This document shows, in pieces, positions 84-22,476 of a DNA stretch of 64,000 nt. Both the position numbers and the translations under genes were made by a program. The stretch's first letter is position 1, and each line of letters begins with the position of its first letter. Below the pieces are notes generated by a model that was not told the origin of the DNA, ran no database searches, and saw nothing but the letters and a program-made list of their open reading frames with translations. Origin of the DNA: an uncultured Methanosarcinales archaeon. GTDB taxonomy: Archaea; Nanobdellota; Nanobdellia; Woesearchaeales; CAYSVS01. Where the stretch lies: contig CAZPRK010000005.1 of NCBI GenBank assembly GCA_964589485.1, positions 1-64,000 on the forward strand, in the 5' to 3' direction.

Positions 84-1058
84 TTAACGCCAACAAACTT
101 CTACATCATCAGTTCTTTCATAAGGTCTAATACTTGAATCTTTTAATTTAACTCCACCTTTATGCATTTTCAAACCACACCATGCAATCATAGCTCCATT
201 GTCAATATTAAACTGATTAGGTAGAATAAAGCATTTAGCACCTCTTTCTTTACACATAGATTGAGCCATTTCTTGTAACCTTTTATTACAAGCAACTCCG
301 CCACCTAATAATAATTCTTTTTTATCACAGTGAGCTAACGCTCTTTCTGCAACTTCAATTAACATTGCGAAAACATATTCTTGTAAAGAATAACATAAAT
401 CTTCTTTTGACATTCCAGAATTAAATTTTTGTTTTAAATTAGTTAATATTCCACCTAAATTAATATCCATTCCTTTTACTGAATATGGAATCGTAATTAA
501 ATTTTTACTTTTCAAAGCCATTTCTTCTACTTTGGGTCCACCTGGAAATCCTAACCCTATACTTCTTGCGAAACTATCTAAAAAATTTCCAACTCCAATA
601 TCTAATGTTTCTCCAAAAATTCTATATTTTCCTGATTCAAATGCAATTACTTGAGTATTAACTCCTGAAACATATAACAATACTGGATCTTTTGCAGTTG
701 TTAACATATTACCAACTTCTAAATGCGCAATACAATGATTTACTCCAATTAAGGGTTTATTATATTTTAAACTTAAATAACGTGCAATAAAGTGTCCAAT
801 TCTTAATGCATGTCCTTGCCCAGGACCTTGAGAAAATGCTATAACGTCAATATCTTTAAATTTTAATTTAGCTTGATCTAAAGCTCTGTTAATCACATCG
901 TCGCATATTTCAACATGATGATCTGCTACTTTAGCAGGAATCATTCCACCTTTTTCAGTTGTAAATAATTCCCTTTCATTTGCCAATACTTTTTTATCAT
1001 GAGTTACAATTCCAACTCCAAATGTATGAGCAGTACTTTCTATACCTAGACATATCAT
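84..1058 (-). CDS. kae1: tRNA N6-threonylcarbamoyltransferase Kae1 (KEOPS)
   Basis: LGIESTAHTFGVG start, VNHCIAH metal motif, GETLDIGVGN, GGVACN and IDNGAMIAW motifs. Confidence 0.95.
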   Translation of the reverse strand: MICLGIESTAHTFGVGIVTHDKKVLANERELFTTEKGGMIPAKVADHHVEICDDVINRALDQAKLKFKDIDVIAFSQGPGQGHALRIGHFIARYLSLKYNKPLIGVNHCIAHLEVGNMLTTAKDPVLLYVSGVNTQVIAFESGKYRIFGETLDIGVGNFLDSFARSIGLGFPGGPKVEEMALKSKNLITIPYSVKGMDINLGGILTNLKQKFNSGMSKEDLCYSLQEYVFAMLIEVAERALAHCDKKELLLGGGVACNKRLQEMAQSMCKERGAKCFILPNQFNIDNGAMIAWCGLKMHKGGVKLKDSSIRPYERTDDVEVCWR

Positions 1059-1149
1059 TATATGTTAAAAAATACTTTTATTTTTAAAGGTTTAGTTAAA
1101 ATAACCCATATGGATTAAATTTAAATTCTATTTTAATTTTAACATTTAT

Positions 1150-1389
1150 ATGACAATTAAATATCTAATAGCGCTTTGGAAAGGCGAATATGAAGCAAAA
1201 TATGAAGTTTCAGATAGTCCTAATATGATGGCTGAAAAAGTTTGTGAAACAGTAGGTGCTACAATAGTTTATAGAGGAAATTTACTAAACCCAGAAGGCA
1301 TTGAAATAATTGAAAATTTCATAAAAGAAACTAATGAAATTGGTAAATTTGATCCAAAAGCACTAGAAAATAAGCTTAAAAAAGAATAA
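1150..1389 (+). CDS. hypothetical protein (79 aa)
   Basis: ORF with normal composition preceded by a TTTAAAT TATA-like box. Confidence 0.6.
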   Translation: MTIKYLIALWKGEYEAKYEVSDSPNMMAEKVCETVGATIVYRGNLLNPEGIEIIENFIKETNEIGKFDPKALENKLKKE

Positions 1390-1417
1390 CTTTTTTAAAC
1401 CCTGAAATCATACTATA

Positions 1418-3319
1418 TTGATGGTTTTTGATGATTTTATTAAAGAAGTAAAAAAATACAATCCAAATGCGAATTCTGATTTAATTAGAAAGGCTTATAA
1501 TTTTTCAAAAGAAGCACATAAAGGTCAAAAAAGAATTTCTGGGGATGATTATTTTGTTCATCCAGTAGGTGTAGCTGAAATTTTAATTAAATTGAGAGCA
1601 GATACTGCTACAATTTGTGCAGCTTTATTACATGATGTCCCTGAAGATACTAAAGTTACAATTAAAGAAATTGAAGAAAAATTCGGAAAAGAAATTGAAG
1701 ATTTAGTTCAAGGAATGACTAAATTTAAAAAAATTACATTTATAAAAAAAGAAGATTATAAAGCCGAAAATTATAGAAAAATATTATTAGCTAGTTCTAG
1801 AGATATTAGAGTTATGCTAATCAAATTAGCAGATAGATTACATAATATGAGAACATTAAAAGATTTAAGACCAGATAAACAAAAACGTATAGCTGAAGAA
1901 ACAATGACAGTATATGCACCAATTGCATATAAGTTAGGTGTAGGTTACATTAAGGGTGAATTAGAAGATTTAAGTTTAAGATATTTAGAACCAAAAGTAT
2001 ATCAATACTTAAAAGCTAAAATTTCAGAAAAAAGAGATGAAAGAGAAACTAAAACTCAAAACATTATAAAACAAATTAAATATTTAATTAAAAAAAATAA
2101 TATTCATGCTGAAGTTACAGGTAGAGCAAAATATTTCTATAGTATTTATCAAAAAATGAAAAAAGATAATAAAACTTTTAATGATATATTTGATTTAATT
2201 GCTGTAAGAATTATTACAGATACTCCTAAAAATTGTTATAGAGTTTTTGAATTAATTCATAATAAATGGGACCCTGATTTAGGAAGGTTCAAAGATTTTA
2301 TTGAAAACCCAAAACATAATGGATATCAATCATTACATACAACTGTTCTTGGTCCATATAATAAAAAGCTAGAAATCCAAGTAAGAACTAAAGATATGCA
2401 TGATTTTGCAGAGGAAGGTGTTGCTGCACATTGGAAATATAAAGGAACAGAAAAAGATAGAAAATTCGAAAAGAAAATTAGATGGATTAAACAATTACTT
2501 GACTGGAAAAGAACAAATAAAGATGCAATTGAAGTTATAGAAGATCTAAATATTGATTTATTTGCAAACGAAATTATAACGTTTACACCTTCAGGTGATC
2601 CTATTTCTCTCCCACTAAATGCAACTCCTGTTGACTTTGCATATGCAGTCCATACTAACCTTGGAAAAGAATGTAATCAAGCTAAAGTTAATGAAAAAAT
2701 TGTTCCTTTAGATTATCAATTAGATTCTGGGGATTTAGTTGAAATAATTACTAAAAAAAACTCTAAACCTAATAGACAATGGTTAAACTTTGTTAAATCA
2801 TCAATGGCTAAAGCTAAAATTAAACAAGCATTAGGAATGCCTCCAGAAAAACCAAAAAAAGATATCGATATAGATGAAAGAGAACAATTAATTCTTTCAG
2901 AACATATAGAAATAAAAGGAAAAAAATATCCACTTAAAATAAGTAAATGTTGTAAACCTAATAAAAAAAATAAAATTGTTGGTTTCTTAACAAAAGATAA
3001 AAAAATTACAGTACATAATCAAGAATGTTTTATCATGAAAAATGAAAAAAATAAAGTTGAATTAAATTGGATTAAACTTGAAGATAAATATGAAAAAGAA
3101 TTTGTAGTAGTTGCTAACGATACACCTGGTTTTATTAAAGAAGTTTTAAACGTAATCACTAGAGCAAAAGTTTTAATTAAATCTATTAATACAAGAAACT
3201 CAAAGGGACATATTGTTTTAGAATTAAAAGTTCATTCTACAGATGAATCTTTATTAAAAGATATTCTTAGAAAAATTAGAAGATTTCAAGAAAGTCTAGA
3301 TGTAAGATTAAAAAAATAA
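1418..3319 (+). CDS. rel: long RelA/SpoT homolog, bifunctional (p)ppGpp synthetase/hydrolase
   Basis: HD hydrolase (LLHDVPED, IKLADRLHNMRTL), synthetase (YSIYQKM, RFKD, NGYQSLHT, EIQVRT, AAHWKYK), TGS (TPVDFAYAVHT), SKCC zinc finger, ACT-like C-terminus. Confidence 0.93.
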   Translation: MMVFDDFIKEVKKYNPNANSDLIRKAYNFSKEAHKGQKRISGDDYFVHPVGVAEILIKLRADTATICAALLHDVPEDTKVTIKEIEEKFGKEIEDLVQGMTKFKKITFIKKEDYKAENYRKILLASSRDIRVMLIKLADRLHNMRTLKDLRPDKQKRIAEETMTVYAPIAYKLGVGYIKGELEDLSLRYLEPKVYQYLKAKISEKRDERETKTQNIIKQIKYLIKKNNIHAEVTGRAKYFYSIYQKMKKDNKTFNDIFDLIAVRIITDTPKNCYRVFELIHNKWDPDLGRFKDFIENPKHNGYQSLHTTVLGPYNKKLEIQVRTKDMHDFAEEGVAAHWKYKGTEKDRKFEKKIRWIKQLLDWKRTNKDAIEVIEDLNIDLFANEIITFTPSGDPISLPLNATPVDFAYAVHTNLGKECNQAKVNEKIVPLDYQLDSGDLVEIITKKNSKPNRQWLNFVKSSMAKAKIKQALGMPPEKPKKDIDIDEREQLILSEHIEIKGKKYPLKISKCCKPNKKNKIVGFLTKDKKITVHNQECFIMKNEKNKVELNWIKLEDKYEKEFVVVANDTPGFIKEVLNVITRAKVLIKSINTRNSKGHIVLELKVHSTDESLLKDILRKIRRFQESLDVRLKK

Positions 3320-16231: not shown

Positions 16232-16304
16232 TACCTTGTAAAGGGCAGATTACTTATAAAATTAATCCCTGTTCAGTGAATAATAAATAAAGTGGAGAAG
16301 AAAA

Positions 16305-16405
16305 TAGCGAGGGGTGGATTTGAATTCGGCAACAGCTTCTCCATCTGTTTCCACCGACCTGAGGGTTATGAGCCCTCCGGGAACTCCTGACTTCCCTACC
16401 TCGCT
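16305..16405 (-). tRNA. tRNA-iMet(CAT) with 26-nt intron at 53/54 (16325-16350)
   Basis: Acceptor AGCGAGG/CCTCGCT (A1-U72), anticodon arm GAGGG-CTCATAA-CCCTC, T arm GGTGG[intron]TTCAAAT-CCACC; no encoded CCA. Confidence 0.92.
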
Positions 16406-16496
16406 AAATACGAGGGAATACTGGACGTTTATAAAAGTTATGATTAATTCAACTAAAAAACCAATATTTAAAAACAATGAAATATAAAATTATTAA

Positions 16497-17084
16497 ATGA
16501 AAGCAATCATATTCGATTTCGATGGAGTGATAGATGATTCTTTTGAATTCCATGTAAATAAAATAACAGAGTTTACTGGATTTAATCTATCTAAAAAAGA
16601 GTTAAGATACATTCATACAGGAAATTTCTTTGAAAAAGCTCCTAAAGAATTGCATGAAGTTAATTGGAAAGATTATAGAGATTATATTTTCAAGGAACAA
16701 ACTAATCAAGTAATCAATAAAAACATAAAACAAACGTTACTAGAATTACATCATAAATTTAATCTATTTATTATTAGTTCAGGCGGAACTAAAAATATTA
16801 AAAGTTATTTGACAAATAATGAAATAAATATATTCAAAGAGGTATTAGGGTTTGAAAAAATTAAATCCAAAGAAAGAAAATTTGAATTTATTTTCAAAAA
16901 ATATAGTTTAACACCAAAAGATTGTATTTTTGTTACAGACACTTTAGGAGACATAATAGAAGCTAATGATGTTAATGTAAAAACTATAGCAGTTGATTTT
17001 GGCTATCATAGTAGAACTGTATTAAGCAAAGGTAAACCTTTTGCTATAATTTCTGATTTAAATGAGATTAAAAAAATGGTGTAA
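16497..17084 (+). CDS. HAD family phosphatase
   Basis: IFDFDGVIDDS, ISS, K and FVTDTLGDI motifs. Confidence 0.9.
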   Translation: MKAIIFDFDGVIDDSFEFHVNKITEFTGFNLSKKELRYIHTGNFFEKAPKELHEVNWKDYRDYIFKEQTNQVINKNIKQTLLELHHKFNLFIISSGGTKNIKSYLTNNEINIFKEVLGFEKIKSKERKFEFIFKKYSLTPKDCIFVTDTLGDIIEANDVNVKTIAVDFGYHSRTVLSKGKPFAIISDLNEIKKMV

Positions 17085-17102
17085 AAAGGAGGAATGATTG
17101 AA

Positions 17103-17246
17103 ATGACAGGTTATGGAATGATGGGAAATCACATGGTAGGAATAGGACTTTTATGGTTGCTTAAAATTGCAGCAGTTGCGTTTATTTTCGGAGTTGTATT
17201 TTGGTGGACTAAACAATTAGTATACAACGAAAAAAGAAAGAAATGA
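17103..17246 (+). CDS. small membrane protein (47 aa, not in ORF track)
   Basis: MTGYGMMGNHMVGIGLLWLLKIAAVAFIFGVVFWWTKQLVYNEKRKK, with GGAGG at 17088-17092. Confidence 0.7.
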   Translation: MTGYGMMGNHMVGIGLLWLLKIAAVAFIFGVVFWWTKQLVYNEKRKK

Positions 17247-17349
17247 AATTATTTTCAAAAAGTATAGTTTAACACCAAAAAAAGGTGTTTTAATTACAGA
17301 ACTTTAGGTTATATAATCTAAGCCAATGATGTTTATGTTAAAACCATAA
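17245..17349 (+). pseudogene. decayed partial duplicate of the HAD gene segment 16883-16988
   Basis: ttattttcaaaaagtatagtttaacaccaaaa...actttagg...aatgatgtttatgttaaaaccata aligns to the upstream gene with substitutions and indels. Confidence 0.8.
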
Positions 17350-17374
17350 AAAAAAGAAACCTTTTTACAATGGT

Positions 17375-17986
17375 TTAATTATTCTTATTTATTGCTTCTT
17401 TTATAATTTTACCAAATGGAGTATCACCCAAAGTAGTTTGAGTTTCTCTAAAAAAATATTTATTAATTGTTTTTTTATCTATAGATTTATTGGCATTACA
17501 TTCTTTAATTAAATCTAAAGAAATATTATTAACAAAATGAAAATTTTCAACTCTTTTTCCTTTTTTTCTAACATATTTCACAAGATAAGAAAAATCACCA
17601 TCGCCACTTATTAATATTGCAGTATCAAATTTATTTTCATATGCATCTCTCAACATATCAATAGCTAAATGAATGTCATCACCTTTTATCGTAAATGTTT
17701 CATTTCCTTCTTTTGTTGTTCTTCTTTGTCTTTTACATAAAATAATTGTTAAATGTTCAATTTTCCTTAATCTTTCAAAAAATAATTGTTGTTGTTTAAA
17801 TAGTTCAGGATCTTTATTTTTTTTCAAAGAAGCATTATAATAATAAATATCAATAAGTTGATTTTTACCAATATAATCTTTTATAAATCTTTCAAAATCA
17901 AATTTGAAATCAGTATATCTTTTATTTATAGATCTTACACCGTAATGAAAATTTGCTCCATCAATAAATACAGATATTCTTGTCAT
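17375..17986 (-). CDS. NYN domain (LabA/DUF88, PIN-like) ribonuclease
   Basis: VFIDGANF, YYY, KGDDIHLAIDML, AILISGDGDF. Confidence 0.92.
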   Translation of the reverse strand: MTRISVFIDGANFHYGVRSINKRYTDFKFDFERFIKDYIGKNQLIDIYYYNASLKKNKDPELFKQQQLFFERLRKIEHLTIILCKRQRRTTKEGNETFTIKGDDIHLAIDMLRDAYENKFDTAILISGDGDFSYLVKYVRKKGKRVENFHFVNNISLDLIKECNANKSIDKKTINKYFFRETQTTLGDTPFGKIIKEAINKNN

Positions 17987-17994
17987 TTTTAAAG

Positions 17995-18090
17995 AAAGTA
18001 CCTACCTTTGCTAAGCAAAGATAGGGGACACTTTTGCAGTATTCTGCAAAGCAGATTCGATCCGAAGATCCAGCACTACCTGATGCTATA
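17995..18090 (-). ncRNA. candidate structured 5' leader RNA (four tandem hairpins) of the NYN gene
   Basis: Minus strand: AGCAT-CAGGTA-GTGCT, GATC-TTCG-GATC, TTTGCAG-AATA-CTGCAAA, CCTATCTTTGC-TTA-GCAAAGGTAGG; TTTAAATA box at 18110-18117. Confidence 0.65.
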
Positions 18091-18202
18091 TGTTTATTAG
18101 ATTAGATTATATTTAAATATTTCCCTAAATAAGTTATAACTAATAATTAGTAACTACTTAAATTTCATTATTAAATTAATTTAATAAAAAAACACCTAAT
18201 CT

Positions 18203-18541
18203 TCAATCTGTTCCAAATAAATCATGTGTCTTTGTACCAAAAAGAGTAGAATATTGGTGTTTTTGATTTGCATCTTGCTCATGAACAACAACATAATTAT
18301 CTAATACAATCTCTAGTTTTTTTAACCCATCTTTATCTTTTCCTGCATAATTAATAATAAAAGGTTCATTTTTATCTACTACAAGCAAATCCTTTCCTTC
18401 TCTACCAATTATAACTTGCGTATCTAATTTTGATAAACCTGAATGTGCAAAGGTTCGGTAATGATCAGCTATAAAAAAAGTTCCCACTCCTACGCTCGCA
18501 AGAAGCGCTCCATAAGATAAACGATTAATTAAACTCCCCAT
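18203..18541 (-). CDS. hypothetical membrane-anchored protein, possibly truncated
   Basis: N-terminal hydrophobic helix followed by a beta-rich segment. Confidence 0.55.
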   Translation of the reverse strand: MGSLINRLSYGALLASVGVGTFFIADHYRTFAHSGLSKLDTQVIIGREGKDLLVVDKNEPFIINYAGKDKDGLKKLEIVLDNYVVVHEQDANQKHQYSTLFGTKTHDLFGTD

Positions 18542-18584
18542 ATAAATTTAAAAAAATAGAACGTTTAAAAAGTTTTGGAATTAA

Positions 18585-18627
18585 AAAACGCCTAGGAAGA
18601 TAAAGGTTAAGTTTATTGACTTAAATA
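18585..18627. repeat. repeat copy 1: decayed tRNA-Ser 3' end plus 34-bp element with inverted repeat
   Basis: aaaacgcc-t-aggaagataaaggttaagtttattgacttaaata; 33/34 identical to 19384-19417. Confidence 0.85.
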
Positions 18628-18683
18628 AGCTATTTCTAAATAGATGGAATGATTTATAAATAATTATATAACAACACCAATAA

Positions 18684-19334
18684 ATGACAAATAAAGAAAT
18701 AAGTGACGAAAAATTAGCAAAAATATATCATAGAGAAATGAAAGATAGAAATTTCGTTACAGTTGGAATGATTGGTGCCGCTCATAGTATCAGAGAGGAA
18801 TATGATGATGCAGAAAAGTACCTTAAAGAATCTTTAGAATTACTACCTGATAACCCACTTAGTATTCAGGACCTTGCTGAAGTTTACTTTCAAAAAGGTG
18901 ATTTAGAAAAAGCAATTGAATTAACAGAAGAATTAGCACAGAGTGATCCTAAAAAAAATAGCTTCAAAGTTACATTAGGTAGATACTACGCAAAAGCAGG
19001 AAGACTAGAAGACGCTGTCAATCAATATGAACAAGTAGTTTTTGATGATTTCAATATGTCAAGCGAAGTTAAATATTCTGTAATCATTCATACAGCTTAT
19101 AAAAGAAGTAACAATTTTCAAGAATTTGTAAGCGAATTTAAAAACATTAAAGCATTGGGTGATTTTGTTATAGGTGTTTTAAGAGTTGATAGAAGAGAAG
19201 AAAAGCAAGCTTTTTTTGAATTAAATAAGTTATATGAAGAGAATGGAAAATCCAACTTTCCGATACTAAAGGCATATCTAAAGCATAGCTTTTTGAGTAT
19301 AATTGAAGAATTACGTTTTAAATTAAAGATATAA
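18684..19334 (+). CDS. tetratricopeptide repeat protein
   Basis: TPR-like A..Y...G..E.A patterns (LAEVYFQKGDLEKAI, LGRYYAKAGRLEDAV). Confidence 0.8.
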   Translation: MTNKEISDEKLAKIYHREMKDRNFVTVGMIGAAHSIREEYDDAEKYLKESLELLPDNPLSIQDLAEVYFQKGDLEKAIELTEELAQSDPKKNSFKVTLGRYYAKAGRLEDAVNQYEQVVFDDFNMSSEVKYSVIIHTAYKRSNNFQEFVSEFKNIKALGDFVIGVLRVDRREEKQAFFELNKLYEENGKSNFPILKAYLKHSFLSIIEELRFKLKI

Positions 19335-19368
19335 ATTCTCACCAACATAAACTTCAAACAATAAATAT

Positions 19369-19417
19369 ATAAAACGCCAAGGGAGGAAGATAAACGTTAA
19401 GTTTATTGACTTAAATA
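19369..19417. repeat. repeat copy 2: tRNA-Ser 3' end duplicate plus 34-bp element
   Basis: ataaaacgccaagggagg matches 20077-20094 at 17/18 and runs into aagataaacgttaagtttattgacttaaata. Confidence 0.88.
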
Positions 19418-19533
19418 GCCTTACTTGTTATATAACTTATACTCGTAGAAAGTATATAATTTTTTCGGTTTTGTGTGAGAAAAAAGGACAGATTTATATT
19501 AACCAAACCAATAATGTTTTTCATGAAAAAAAA

Positions 19534-20022
19534 TTATTTTTGATATTTTTTAATATCTACCTTTAAATCATTTGGACCAAACCCAAGTGGAAGAAGTTCT
19601 GCAATAGTTGTTATAGCTATTTTATCCATTGTACTTGTTGCCATAATTATTTCTAAATCTGTACCTGAAACTTGAGAAGACTCGTATAACATTTGTCTAC
19701 AAGGTCCACATGGAGCAGTAACTCTACTTGTGCTGAAATCTTTTCCTTTAGCAATTATTGCAGCTCTATAAAATTGTCTTATTTCCATAGAATTCGCTCT
19801 TACTATTGCTGATCTTTCAGCACATATTGTAGGACCAAAAGCTGCATTTTCTACATTGGATCCTGTAATTATTTGCCCATCTTGTGATAAAAGAGAAGCC
19901 CCAACTGAAAAATTAGAATATGGGTTATAAGCTTTTTCCATTGCATTTACTGCTTCATCAAGTAACCTTTTTTGTATATCTTCTAATTTTTCAAATGTTA
20001 CATACTTTATATCCGCTGGCAT
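19534..20022 (-). CDS. cdd: cytidine deaminase (homotetrameric type)
   Basis: AYNPYSNFSVGA, GSNVENA, ICAERSA, PCGPCRQ, LLPLGF. Confidence 0.93.
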   Translation of the reverse strand: MPADIKYVTFEKLEDIQKRLLDEAVNAMEKAYNPYSNFSVGASLLSQDGQIITGSNVENAAFGPTICAERSAIVRANSMEIRQFYRAAIIAKGKDFSTSRVTAPCGPCRQMLYESSQVSGTDLEIIMATSTMDKIAITTIAELLPLGFGPNDLKVDIKKYQK

Positions 20023-20082
20023 AAAATAAGAAATAATGGAAAGCTTTTAAAGATTATTATAAAATAGTTTTAGAAAATAAAA

Positions 20083-20207
20083 CGCCGAGGGAGGGACTTG
20101 AACCCTCGTGCCCCGAAGGACAGTAGATCTTTGTGGACCATTGTAAGTTTCTAATGAACTAAAGTTCATAGCAATCTACCGCAATGGCCAGACTATGCGA
20201 CCTCGGC
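20083..20207 (-). tRNA. tRNA-Ser(GCT) with ~40-nt anticodon-loop intron (20129-20168)
   Basis: Acceptor GCCGAGG/CCTCGGC, G73, anticodon stem GTAGA/TCTAC, long variable arm, T arm GAGGG-TTCAAGT-CCCTC. Confidence 0.92.
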
Positions 20208-22227: not shown

Positions 22228-22476
22228 TTATTTTCTTTTTTTTGCTACTTTTCTTTTAGCTGGTTTTTTCTTTGCCGCTTTCTTCCTTGTTGCTTTTTTC
22301 TTAGCGGGTTTCTTTTTTGCAGCTTTCTTTTTAGTTGCTTTTTTCTTCACAGCTTTTCTTTTAGCTGGCTTTTTCTTAGCAGCTTTCTTTTTTGTCGCTT
22401 TTTTTCTTGCTGGTTTCTTTTTAGCAGCCTTCTTTTTAGTAGCCTTTTTTCTTGTAGCTTTTTTTCTTGCAGCCAT
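22228..22476 (-). CDS. histone H1-like Lys/Ala-rich basic protein
   Basis: Almost entirely KKAT/KKAA/KKPA repeats; GAGGTGA Shine-Dalgarno upstream. Confidence 0.8.
   Translation of the reverse strand: MAARKKATRKKATKKKAAKKKPARKKATKKKAAKKKPAKRKAVKKKATKKKAAKKKPAKKKATRKKAAKKKPAKRKVAKKRK

Follow-up and report, generated by a model that had tools for sequence, protein, structure and literature searches.

Tandem tRNA-end junctions behind a serine tRNA gene of a Woesearchaeota-like archaeon: probable relics of serial integration

The repeat array behind the tRNA-Ser(GCU) gene of a tiny marine archaeon, Woesearchaeota-like (DPANN), can be read with a probability of about 0.75 as the footprint of two successive site-specific integrations at the 3' end of this gene, later decayed into CIME-like relics in tandem accretion. 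The array lies in the window, i.e. the whole stretch of 64,000 nucleotides analysed here, on an 88.9-kb contig (C5) of a 1.16-Mb genome (G000), and it was compared with two genomes of the same genus (G001 and G002) and with further relatives. Loci related by SerRS place the organism among MAGs labelled Woesearchaeota or Nanoarchaeota. The first-pass annotation had described single-gene units separated by tRNA-end repeats and had proposed an integron-like array of minimal cassettes; its observations were partly confirmed and its interpretation was partly supported.

To our knowledge, little has been charted of the mobile elements in DPANN archaea, whose cells are thought to have few gene-exchange routes. 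The locus and its relatives supply a candidate att site, which by shared sequence blocks would begin at position 61 of tRNA-Ser and end about 13 nt beyond the gene, together with a recognisable distal arm and a large integrase family sitting beside tRNA genes. Accessory genes (cdd, TPR, a Hachimoji-like pair, nucleotidyltransferases) appear to enter these small genomes at tRNA-Ser. The mechanism is not new; it is a known route of genomic-island building, met here in a little-studied lineage.

The serine tRNA target and the island behind it

The putative integration target, the tRNA-Ser(GCU) gene, occupies positions 20083-20207 on the minus strand (Rfam RF00005, 40.4 bits, E 3.8e-6), and the whole-genome tRNA search agrees. 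Its anticodon loop is interrupted by a 42-nt intron. ARAGORN and the Rfam gathering scan both missed the gene in the window, and these false negatives are due to introns. The candidate att core at the intact tRNA (20077-20095, minus strand) was delimited as the block of identity with the nearer repeat copy, B, and consists of 13 nt of the gene (3' strand of the T-stem, 3' strand of the acceptor and discriminator) followed by 6 nt of T-rich trailer. The shared TTTTATTTTCT trailer was at one point taken for an element arm ('P-left') and was rejected in this role: the same trailer also stands 3' of tRNA-Ser in other genera, so it is probably the native terminator.

From tRNA-Met(CAU) to the 3' end of tRNA-Ser extends a variable island (16407-20076, no strand assigned), recognised by orthologues missing in congeners. 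It contains HAD, a small transmembrane ORF, NYN, a hairpin cluster, orf112, junction A, TPR, junction B and cdd, and conservation with contig C82 of G001 extends to about 16390. In G001 the tRNA-Ser gene immediately adjoins a transglutaminase-like gene. The comparison of gene content behind tRNA-Ser(GCU) that the first-pass annotation had called for gave a different content in all three congeners, and across genera no synteny was found downstream of tRNA-Ser except for 1 weak match. Neither cdd, TPR, NYN nor HAD has an orthologue in G001 and G002, the last three giving weak, paralogue-level matches only.

Each interval of the array holds, as claimed before, one credible gene. The tRNA-proximal, younger unit carries cdd (19534-20022, minus strand), a cytidine deaminase of 162 aa (PF00383 3.8e-18, PF08211 1.8e-14) that is present in 0/2 same-genus genomes and in 6/40 relatives. 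The cargo of the older unit is a TPR-repeat protein gene of 216 aa (18684-19334, plus strand; TPR Pfam families, e.g. PF07719 8.5e-14), for which relatives give generic TPR matches only, at 24-31% identity. Beyond junction A, still in the island, the ORF list places orf112 (18203-18541, minus strand), without a match in Pfam or PHROGs. The units are bounded by att copies, unit 1 reaching from A to B and unit 2 from B to the tRNA core, and measure 0.7-0.8 kb each; no recombinase was found in either of them (ORF list, Pfam). The reported lack of an integrase gene holds well beyond the units: no tyrosine recombinase (PF00589) or fragment of one was found on C5, tblastn with three integrases returned nothing there, and G000 has no member of the cognate family of about 400 aa, the best tblastn match (23% identity) lying at the start of contig C6.

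Two junctions of one arm family

The last 12-13 nt of tRNA-Ser(GCU) and the trailer recur at 19369-19387. As reported earlier, the tRNA 3' end with trailer (20077-20094) and its copy (19369-19386) are identical in 17 of 18 positions, and within 3 substitutions these are the only 2 sites in the whole genome. The 19-mer core occurs 2 times in the window against 0.18 expected, a count reached by 1 of 100 shuffles. A decayed copy, placed previously near 18585-18596, was found again at 18583-18596. All direct repeats lie downstream of the tRNA and are oriented like it, and decay is stronger in the more distant copy, which speaks for the suggested sequential insertion with older sites decaying. A vestigial copy proposed at 18186-18198 did not stand: the element model gives it 0.4 bits (E 8.7), and with at most 1 mismatch allowed its 12-mer has 7 matches in the window where 2.7 are expected, a number reached by 7 of 100 shuffles.

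Junction B (19364-19472, minus strand; model R1, 87.5 bits, alignments A1 and A2) is of attR type and consists of the tRNA-end copy at 19369-19387 joined to a conserved arm of about 85 nt (19388-19472). The arm bears a box, AAACGTTAAGTTTAT, at 19392-19406 and a BRE/TATA-like motif, AGAAAGTATATAATT, at 19447-19461, which reads on the plus strand, away from the tRNA fragment. Junction A (18579-18682, minus strand; model R1, 63.7 bits, repeat family D1) appears to be an older relic of the same type, its core at 18583-18596 being decayed by a 3-nt deletion and a mismatch. The promoter in the arm of A lies 20 nt before the TPR start codon, and the TPR gene starts directly after it; that of B faces only the 3' end of cdd and drives no gene.

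The 34-bp element noted previously (18594-18627 and 19384-19417) is indeed identical in 33 of 34 positions, but it is only the first 34 nt of the two arms, the true repeat unit being about 105 nt (19364-19472 and 18579-18682). No further genome copy of the 34-mer was found within 8 substitutions. The dyad TTAAGT-N6-ACTTAA is likewise present in B (19397-19414) and A (18607-18624), while its assumed att role fails: it is missing from the other 5 members of the family, and since the identity block acting as att core is the tRNA segment and the dyad is not conserved, a role for the dyad is not supported.

Searched in 61 genomes, the element of about 105 nt is represented by 7 copies at E < 1e-4, all of them confined to the 3 species of this genus; the best E of the arm model in the remaining 58 genomes was 0.0036. 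Four of the 7 copies were model inputs (window A and B and one copy each on contig C12 of G000 and contig C12 of G001), and the model search added 3 new ones, two on contig C60 and one on contig C57 of G002. The diverged copy on C12 of G000 was found through BLAST and the model; the fuzzy 34-mer search gave the window pair only. In every copy the conserved arm of about 90 nt meets a tRNA 3' end at one point, tRNA position 60/61, and against a constant arm body the part derived from the tRNA differs according to the tRNA concerned. The ends carried are those of serine isoacceptors (GCU, UGA, GGA) in 5/7 copies and a serine-type end in 1/7; for the fragment of the G001 copy no matching tRNA end was found. 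Copies A and B carry the Ser(GCU) end, the C12 copy of G000 matches in 15/15 nt a tRNA on another contig (C3, 107365-107448; anticodon read as UGA), and the first C60 copy (C60a) has 13/13 nt of a Ser(GGA)-type end.

The element flanks other genes too, as the first-pass annotation had asked: the same junction element stands beside unrelated genes elsewhere, in G002 a HamA+helicase pair and a DUF6036 nucleotidyltransferase, and the proteins flanking different arm copies are unrelated to each other. On C60 two arm-plus-core copies lie 2.3 kb apart, the farther one decayed, without an integrase between them. A pattern scan of metagenomes gave one contig, a mere duplicate of C60. Short att-bounded units recur behind tRNA-Ser in 5/20 relatives, twice as perfect tandem copies (of 116 nt in G021 and 145 nt in G020).

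Other origins of the tRNA fragments were considered. Since the copies include the trailer of the gene, they point to DNA-level duplication. A split or trans-spliced tRNA half was rejected because the fragments have only 11-13 nt and no T arm, intact cognate tRNAs exist, and nothing complementary to the variable arm segment was found in the rest of the genome. Inspection by eye showed neither the C and D boxes of a C/D-box guide nor the TGG for CCA of a primer-binding site.

Integrases of relatives and the proposed history

In the sister species G002, tyrosine integrases of 405, 409 and 436 aa (PF00589 4e-22, 2e-23 and 1e-15) are encoded on contigs C74, C165 and C148, and their genes start 110-180 nt past tRNA-Ser ends on the same strand. 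The earlier proposal that a tyrosine-integrase system targets the tRNA-Ser 3' end is in line with this arrangement. The family counts 2882 proteins at E <= 1e-10, with names including 'site-specific integrase [Candidatus Woesearchaeota archaeon]'. Its members lie 69-550 nt 3' of a same-strand tRNA in 8 of the 23 loci with an Rfam-visible tRNA (4 of these 8 tRNAs being tRNA-Ser), and the layout occurs on the three G002 contigs and at 7 loci in other genera. A replication module was not seen in the short G002 contigs. The tRNA end on C74 and junction C60a share a block of 26/26 nt (29/30 when extended), which begins at tRNA position 61 and whose flanks diverge on both sides. C74 and C60 are separate contigs, and the shared core resembles an attL/attR pair.

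From these data the following history is proposed. The source elements would have belonged to an integrative family of this Woesearchaeota-like genus, whose tyrosine integrase, of about 400 aa, is encoded beside the tRNA and on its strand; such an enzyme may have catalysed the events in the window. The att core would run from tRNA position 61 (3' strand of the T-stem) through the acceptor strand and the discriminator into the T-rich trailer. Integration would restore the tRNA and duplicate the core, the second copy coming to lie at the distal border of the insert and being fused there to a distal arm of about 90 nt with an inward-facing promoter and a AAACGTWAAGTTTAT box, a putative protein-binding site. 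A related second element would then have used the restored tRNA end as its site and displaced the first one outward, an order that we infer from the positions of the copies. Loss of the integrases and of most cargo genes through later deletions would have left two integrase-less units, one with cdd and one with TPR.

Several observations stand against serial integration followed by decay. The window contains no integrase or fragment and G000 no family member, and the window units are without the GC-rich proximal-arm motifs that are seen by eye beside the G002 integrases. At 0.7-0.8 kb, and with one intact gene apiece, the units are smaller than decay products usually are. The C12 copy of G000 and its cognate tRNA lie on different contigs, so a rearrangement must be assumed, and the fragment of the G001 copy fits no tRNA end found. 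Finally, the arms of A and B are identical in 33/34 positions yet the core of A is damaged, which neutral decay alone does not predict.

It is less likely, and in our opinion rather improbable, that the units are working mini-cassettes: integrase-less, att-bounded packets of 1-2 genes moved in trans by visiting integrases of about 400 aa, with tRNA-Ser as an integron-like platform. Each window unit does keep an att copy on both sides as well as one intact gene under a promoter of its own, and the unrelated cargo of the arm and the short units behind tRNA-Ser in relatives would fit such traffic. Extended to marine Woesearchaeota-like archaea at large, with integrase-less units of about 0.1-2.3 kb (metabolic, TPR, defence) shuffled in trans at tRNA-Ser and the same traffic creating T-loop introns at 60/61, the proposal is a speculative one that we consider unlikely. 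The missing cognate integrase in G000, the missing proximal arm, the non-conserved dyad and the lack of a conserved attC-like fold all weigh against working mini-cassettes. As the arm promoter of B serves only the 3' end of cdd and full-size relatives carry their own integrase, decayed elements are a simpler explanation than the one-gene cassettes of the first-pass annotation. Nor was an att-to-att joint, an empty site or an excised form seen in the contigs of 4 other runs, which drop rare variants; the arrangement of the locus is unchanged there, and current mobility was not observed within that scope. As side observations, a single X6 record appears to connect 17538 with 20059 across 26 other letters, its endpoints lying off the att copies, and the X6 cover is low over 18204-19271.

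Much more remote is the idea that the unit of about 105 nt is a gene or regulatory module of its own (a small RNA whose 3' tail resembles a tRNA, or a movable promoter/terminator block) spread by duplication. The BRE/TATA-like motif and the T-run found in every good arm copy, as well as the position of the A promoter ahead of TPR, could be explained in this manner. The alignment of 7 copies, however, has no conserved fold (consensus energy -0.21 kcal/mol, 0/5 predicted pairs compensatory), Rfam has no family over the region at E <= 1, the tRNA-derived part varies with the tRNA against a constant body, and integrases stand at matching tRNA ends. Just as far-fetched, and already disfavoured, is an origin without any mobile element, by ordinary tandem duplication on the spot or by unequal crossing-over in the region distal to the tRNA: the perfect units of G021 and G020 do show unequal exchange between core copies, but the cdd and TPR units share no homology beyond the junction of about 105 nt, their flanks being unrelated, and the arm is found again at the ends of further serine tRNAs, both on different contigs and in different species.

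Comparison with known systems

The preferred reading, decayed serial integration, can be set against several known systems. SSV-type integration, with attP in the integrase gene and int halves flanking the insert, differs in that no int fragment was found on C5 (tblastn, PF00589). An integron array has an IntI-type integrase and attI at its head and attC sites that are imperfect palindromes conserved as a fold. The window array shares with integrons the small gene units, presumably added serially at one site by a tyrosine recombinase; unlike them it is headed by a tRNA gene, has no platform integrase and no folded attC-type sites, and its genes stand in both orientations with their own promoters.

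Tycheposons of Prochlorococcus, as outlined in bioRxiv 10.1101/2020.12.28.424599, integrate serially, push older elements outward and leave partial tRNAs behind. A streamlined marine genome, tyrosine recombinases at few tRNA genes including tRNA-Ser and degraded remnants are common to that account and to the present locus, whereas the host belongs to another domain of life. In pNOB8-type elements a tRNA 3' segment is repeated directly at both borders, as here, and the complete relatives (C74, C165 and C148 of G002 and the 7 other loci) repeat the layout described in PMC3293823, with integrase and reconstituted tRNA side by side on one strand. The likeness is one of layout. The window copies differ by having no integrase and a DPANN (Woesearchaeota-like) host, and by a core that is short (13-26 nt) and begins at position 61 instead of in the anticodon region.

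According to the model of Sugahara et al. 2012 (PMC3293823), integration of mobile elements disrupts tRNA genes, the case described there being tRNA-Thr of Caldiarchaeum, with a 5' fragment and with an intron at 24/25. The present data resemble it in a tRNA fragment lying away from its tRNA (C12 versus C3 of G000) and in tRNA introns tied to element sequence; they differ in that 3' fragments and insertion at 60/61 of tRNA-Ser are concerned. The T-loop introns of tRNA-Ser (60/61) coincide in position with the left edge of the core and have a motif in common with element-side DNA, which suggests a link to the elements; insertions at 60/61 occur in G002, G018, G029 and G036 and on contig C133 of G001. 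For a new lineage and a new tRNA position, this supports at the sequence level the view that tRNA introns may arise from integrative elements and that such elements may scatter fragments of tRNAs.

The array also resembles the CIMEs of Streptococcus ICE/IME systems. The known cases are bacterial and conjugative, and the window units are far smaller. The three-step scheme of CIME accretion given in PMC5704250 has integration genes lost, att sites kept and elements placed in tandem at a tRNA 3' end once a newer one has integrated; the window units, too, keep their flanking att sites, are integrase-less and stand in tandem at one tRNA 3' end.

tRNA-Ser(GCU) and its repeats in the window

The genome to which the window belongs (1.16 Mb, 27% GC, 23 contigs) has a completeness rating of 99.9%, and the nearest MAGs to its seryl-tRNA synthetase are labelled mostly Woesearchaeota or Nanoarchaeota. 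Despite this completeness only 22 tRNA genes are detected by Rfam across the whole genome, so that many of its tRNAs must bear non-canonical introns or other disruptions. In the window no tRNA was found by ARAGORN or by an Rfam gathering scan; a permissive Rfam scan placed tRNA-Ser(GCU) on the minus strand (20083-20207, 40.4 bits), its anticodon being followed by a 42-nt insert.

The 3' end of this tRNA with its trailer (18 nt, 20077-20094) has a second copy at 19369-19386 (17/18 identity) and no third site within 3 substitutions in the whole genome. A decayed copy of the tRNA end with a 3-nt deletion is located at 18583-18596, just ahead of the first member of a 34-nt repeat (18594-18627 and 19384-19417, 33/34 identical), which is confined to those two sites within 8 substitutions genome-wide; a 19-mer within it occurs twice in the window where 0.18 is expected. 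The recurrences reported by the first-pass annotation are real, and its single gene per interval holds as well (cdd, a TPR protein gene and orf112, one credible gene each), while its vestigial fourth tRNA-end copy at 18186-18198 gets no support. Further along, an 82-aa protein (22228-22476, minus strand) consists almost entirely of KKKA/KKKP repeats, and its DNA resembles repeats in many relatives.

The junction element and the tRNA ends it carries

Both repeats belong to an element of about 105 nt with two copies in the window, A (18579-18682) and B (19364-19472, nearer to the tRNA), both on the minus strand. BLAST of the region against relatives returned a third copy, 75% identical, on contig C12 of the same genome (G000) and another on C12 of the congener G001. 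A sequence-only model built from the alignment of these four copies (R1; alignments A1 and A2) gave 7 matches at E < 1e-4 over 61 genomes, namely the four inputs, two copies 2.3 kb apart on contig C60 of the second congener, G002 (C60a and C60b), and one on its contig C57; outside the genus, no match in the remaining 58 genomes was better than E = 0.0036. On the plus strand of the window every copy has, in the same order, an A-rich stretch that corresponds to a T-run trailer in reverse complement, a GC-rich part of 11-13 nt and the box AAACGTWAAGTTTAT. Roughly 20 variable nt separate this box from TTGTTATATAA, and some 10 nt further on a BRE/TATA-like GAGAAAGTATATAATT is directed away from the GC-rich part. 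No relatedness was found among the proteins flanking different copies. About 18 contigs of G001 start or finish with a common sequence of about 50 nt (for example positions 1-50 of loci L012, L018 and L020), probably an adapter or assembly artefact, which produced spurious 16-nt matches to window 19457-19472.

Judged by sequence match, the GC-rich part is a tRNA end, and every such tRNA that could be identified is a serine tRNA. Copies A and B carry that of Ser(GCU). The G000:C12 copy matches in 15/15 nt the end of a tRNA at G000:C3:107365-107448, whose anticodon was read from sequence as UGA and whose G002 homologue is Ser(UGA) by ARAGORN. G002:C60a matches in 13/13 nt the Ser(GGA)-type end of G000:C10 and G002:C74, C60b is a decayed form of such an end, and the C57 copy carries a GGGCCGTAGCG end resembling the Ser(UGA) tRNA of G002:C165; for the G001:C12 copy, a search for a tRNA matching its fragment found none. 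In all copies the tRNA homology begins at, or not more than 2 nt from, position 61, where the 3' strand of the T stem starts.

Integrases and insertions at tRNA-Ser genes of relatives

The three tyrosine-recombinase matches of G000 are located on C19, at the start of C6 and, as a fragment, on C13, with none on the contig of the window (C5). In G002 a PF00589 protein of 436-444 aa lies directly 3' of tRNA-Ser(GCU) on C148, a 405-aa integrase begins 175 nt past tRNA-Ser(GGA) on C74, and on C165 tRNA-Ser(UGA) is followed by a 79-nt spacer, a second copy of its end and a 409-aa integrase. The C74 and C165 enzymes are 55% identical, and either is about 27% identical to that of C148. The C74 tRNA end and the C60a junction have 26/26 nt in common (29/30 extended), from position 61 to 13 nt beyond the gene, with divergence on both sides; this is how the attL and attR sites of a single element type look, a pairing inferred here across contigs that are not physically linked.

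The integrase family comprises 2882 proteins at E <= 1e-10, some with source names of Woesearchaeota or Nanoarchaeota site-specific integrases. It is patchy among relatives (16/101 genomes at E <= 1e-20), and in the same search it was absent from G000 and G001. By Rfam, 8/23 integrase loci have a same-strand tRNA 69-550 nt upstream of the integrase gene: Ser(GGA) twice, and Ser(CGA), Ser(UGA), Glu, Arg, Met and Thr once each. Since Rfam overlooked the tRNA-Ser genes of C74 and C148, which carry introns, the remaining 15 loci are not evidence of absence. About 1.3 kb past the 3' end of the integrase gene adjoining tRNA-Ser(CGA), locus L207 (G017:C18) holds an Rfam RT-16 RNA match at 24-158 (95.4 bits).

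Further downstream copies of the 13-nt end are present at 6/20 tRNA-Ser loci of relatives, and upstream or inverted copies at none of the 20. G038 has three copies inside 220 nt; G021 (L059) and G020 (L067) have two identical tandem units, of 116 and 145 nt respectively, just 3' of tRNA-Ser(GCU), each unit ending in a copy of the last 13-21 nt of the tRNA and holding no gene. G030 has one copy, G011 one with 2 mismatches, and G018, the weakest case, one with 2 mismatches at +5.5 kb.

Insertions that separate the T loop from position 61, at precisely the left border of the att core, interrupt tRNA-Ser(GCU) of G002 (C148, L026), G018 (L050), G029 (L064) and G036 (L061), and Ser(GGA) of G001:C133 (L174). 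Those of G018 and G001:C133, from different genera, are both 44 nt long and agree at 40/44 positions. They have the motif GAACGT(C)AGTGAG(C)AAAG in common with DNA just 3' of a G025 tRNA-Ser, and most of it is common to the G001:C133 insertion and the G002:C165 spacer; in each of these comparisons the observed score was reached by 0/500 shuffles. Similarity of this kind suggests that T-loop introns of tRNA-Ser are tied to element-side sequence.

Stacked junctions in a variable island

DNA of the window is conserved with G001 as far as about 16390. At this edge a GC island holds tRNA-Met(CAU) (16304-16406, minus strand) with an insertion of about 26 nt in its T arm; unmodified, it was missed by ARAGORN and Rfam, and ARAGORN called it only once the insertion was removed in silico (66/2424 deletion variants, every one Met(CAU)). 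Its homologues are found in G001:C82 (40 nt, 98% identical) and at the start of G002:C148 (37 nt, 97%), where Rfam detects a 5'-cut tRNA. A variable island of about 16.4-20.08 kb is thus flanked by two tRNAs. As the first-pass annotation proposed, gene content downstream of tRNA-Ser(GCU) was compared among the congeners, and it differs in all three: cdd/B/TPR/A in G000, an integrase element in G002, and in G001 an inverted tRNA abutting a transglutaminase-like gene. For cdd, homologues were found in 0/2 congeners and 6/40 relatives (25-40% identity); the TPR protein gave only generic TPR matches in relatives, and the NYN and HAD proteins only weak partial matches in G001 and G002.

Between the NYN gene and orf112, a 41% GC island (17992-18112, minus strand) has three or four predicted hairpins, one with an 11-bp stem; its fold (-32.1 kcal/mol, z -2.8) was equalled by 4/200 shuffles, and it has neither an Rfam match nor a DNA match in relatives. 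One contig record of run X6 links 17538, in the NYN gene, with position 20059, which is 18 nt short of the att core, the two being separated by 26 letters of other sequence; it may be a candidate strain variant devoid of most of the island.

The window holds two attR-type junctions, each a conserved distal arm of about 90 nt with a displaced core copy of the tRNA end, stacked behind tRNA-Ser; the outer junction A is more decayed than B and no integrase is left. A like stacking on G002:C60 encloses a 2.3-kb integrase-less unit with a DUF6036 nucleotidyltransferase and a gene of no known function. By analogy, both fit serial integration followed by decay: successive elements would insert at the tRNA-Ser end, integrases would later be lost and older sites would decay. 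The core idea of the first-pass annotation was right in this respect, whereas its integron-like cassette mechanism is unsupported, the dyad TTAAGT-N6-ACTTAA on which it was built being present in A and B alone among the element copies.

The predicted arm promoter is directed into the element. It lies 20 nt ahead of the TPR start codon in copy A and faces a HamA+helicase pair in G002:C57 (L091), while in copy B nothing but the cdd 3' end lies in front of it, suggesting that an internal deletion has occurred. The L091 pair (216-3141), a HamA-domain protein and a DEAD/ResIII helicase directly downstream of the promoter, is Hachimoji-like, and a cytidylyltransferase-deaminase fusion lies on the opposite side of the element copy.

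Several points speak against decayed elements: the window units are very small and have no proximal arm, the G000:C12 copy and its tRNA are on different contigs, one element fragment has no matching tRNA, and the 34 nt common to A and B are better preserved than the core of A. That the units are live cassettes, still mobile, is improbable. In contigs of four other runs from two studies the locus was unchanged and no att-to-att joints were seen, but contigs hide rare forms. Very little credence can be given to a plain tandem duplication, the contents of the two units being unrelated, or to a role of the 105-nt unit as an RNA gene, which is without support.

The probable integration relics behind tRNA-Ser are an instance of an already known kind of system. 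The scheme described for accretion of CIMEs, elements which keep att sites but no integration genes, is comparable to the window array, as are tycheposon islands with their serial integration and later decay. The integrases located just 3' of a tRNA on the same strand in relatives are like the pNOB8-type arrangement in the Discussion of PMC3293823 (Sugahara et al. 2012), and the link suggested here between T-loop introns and elements is in like spirit to that work.
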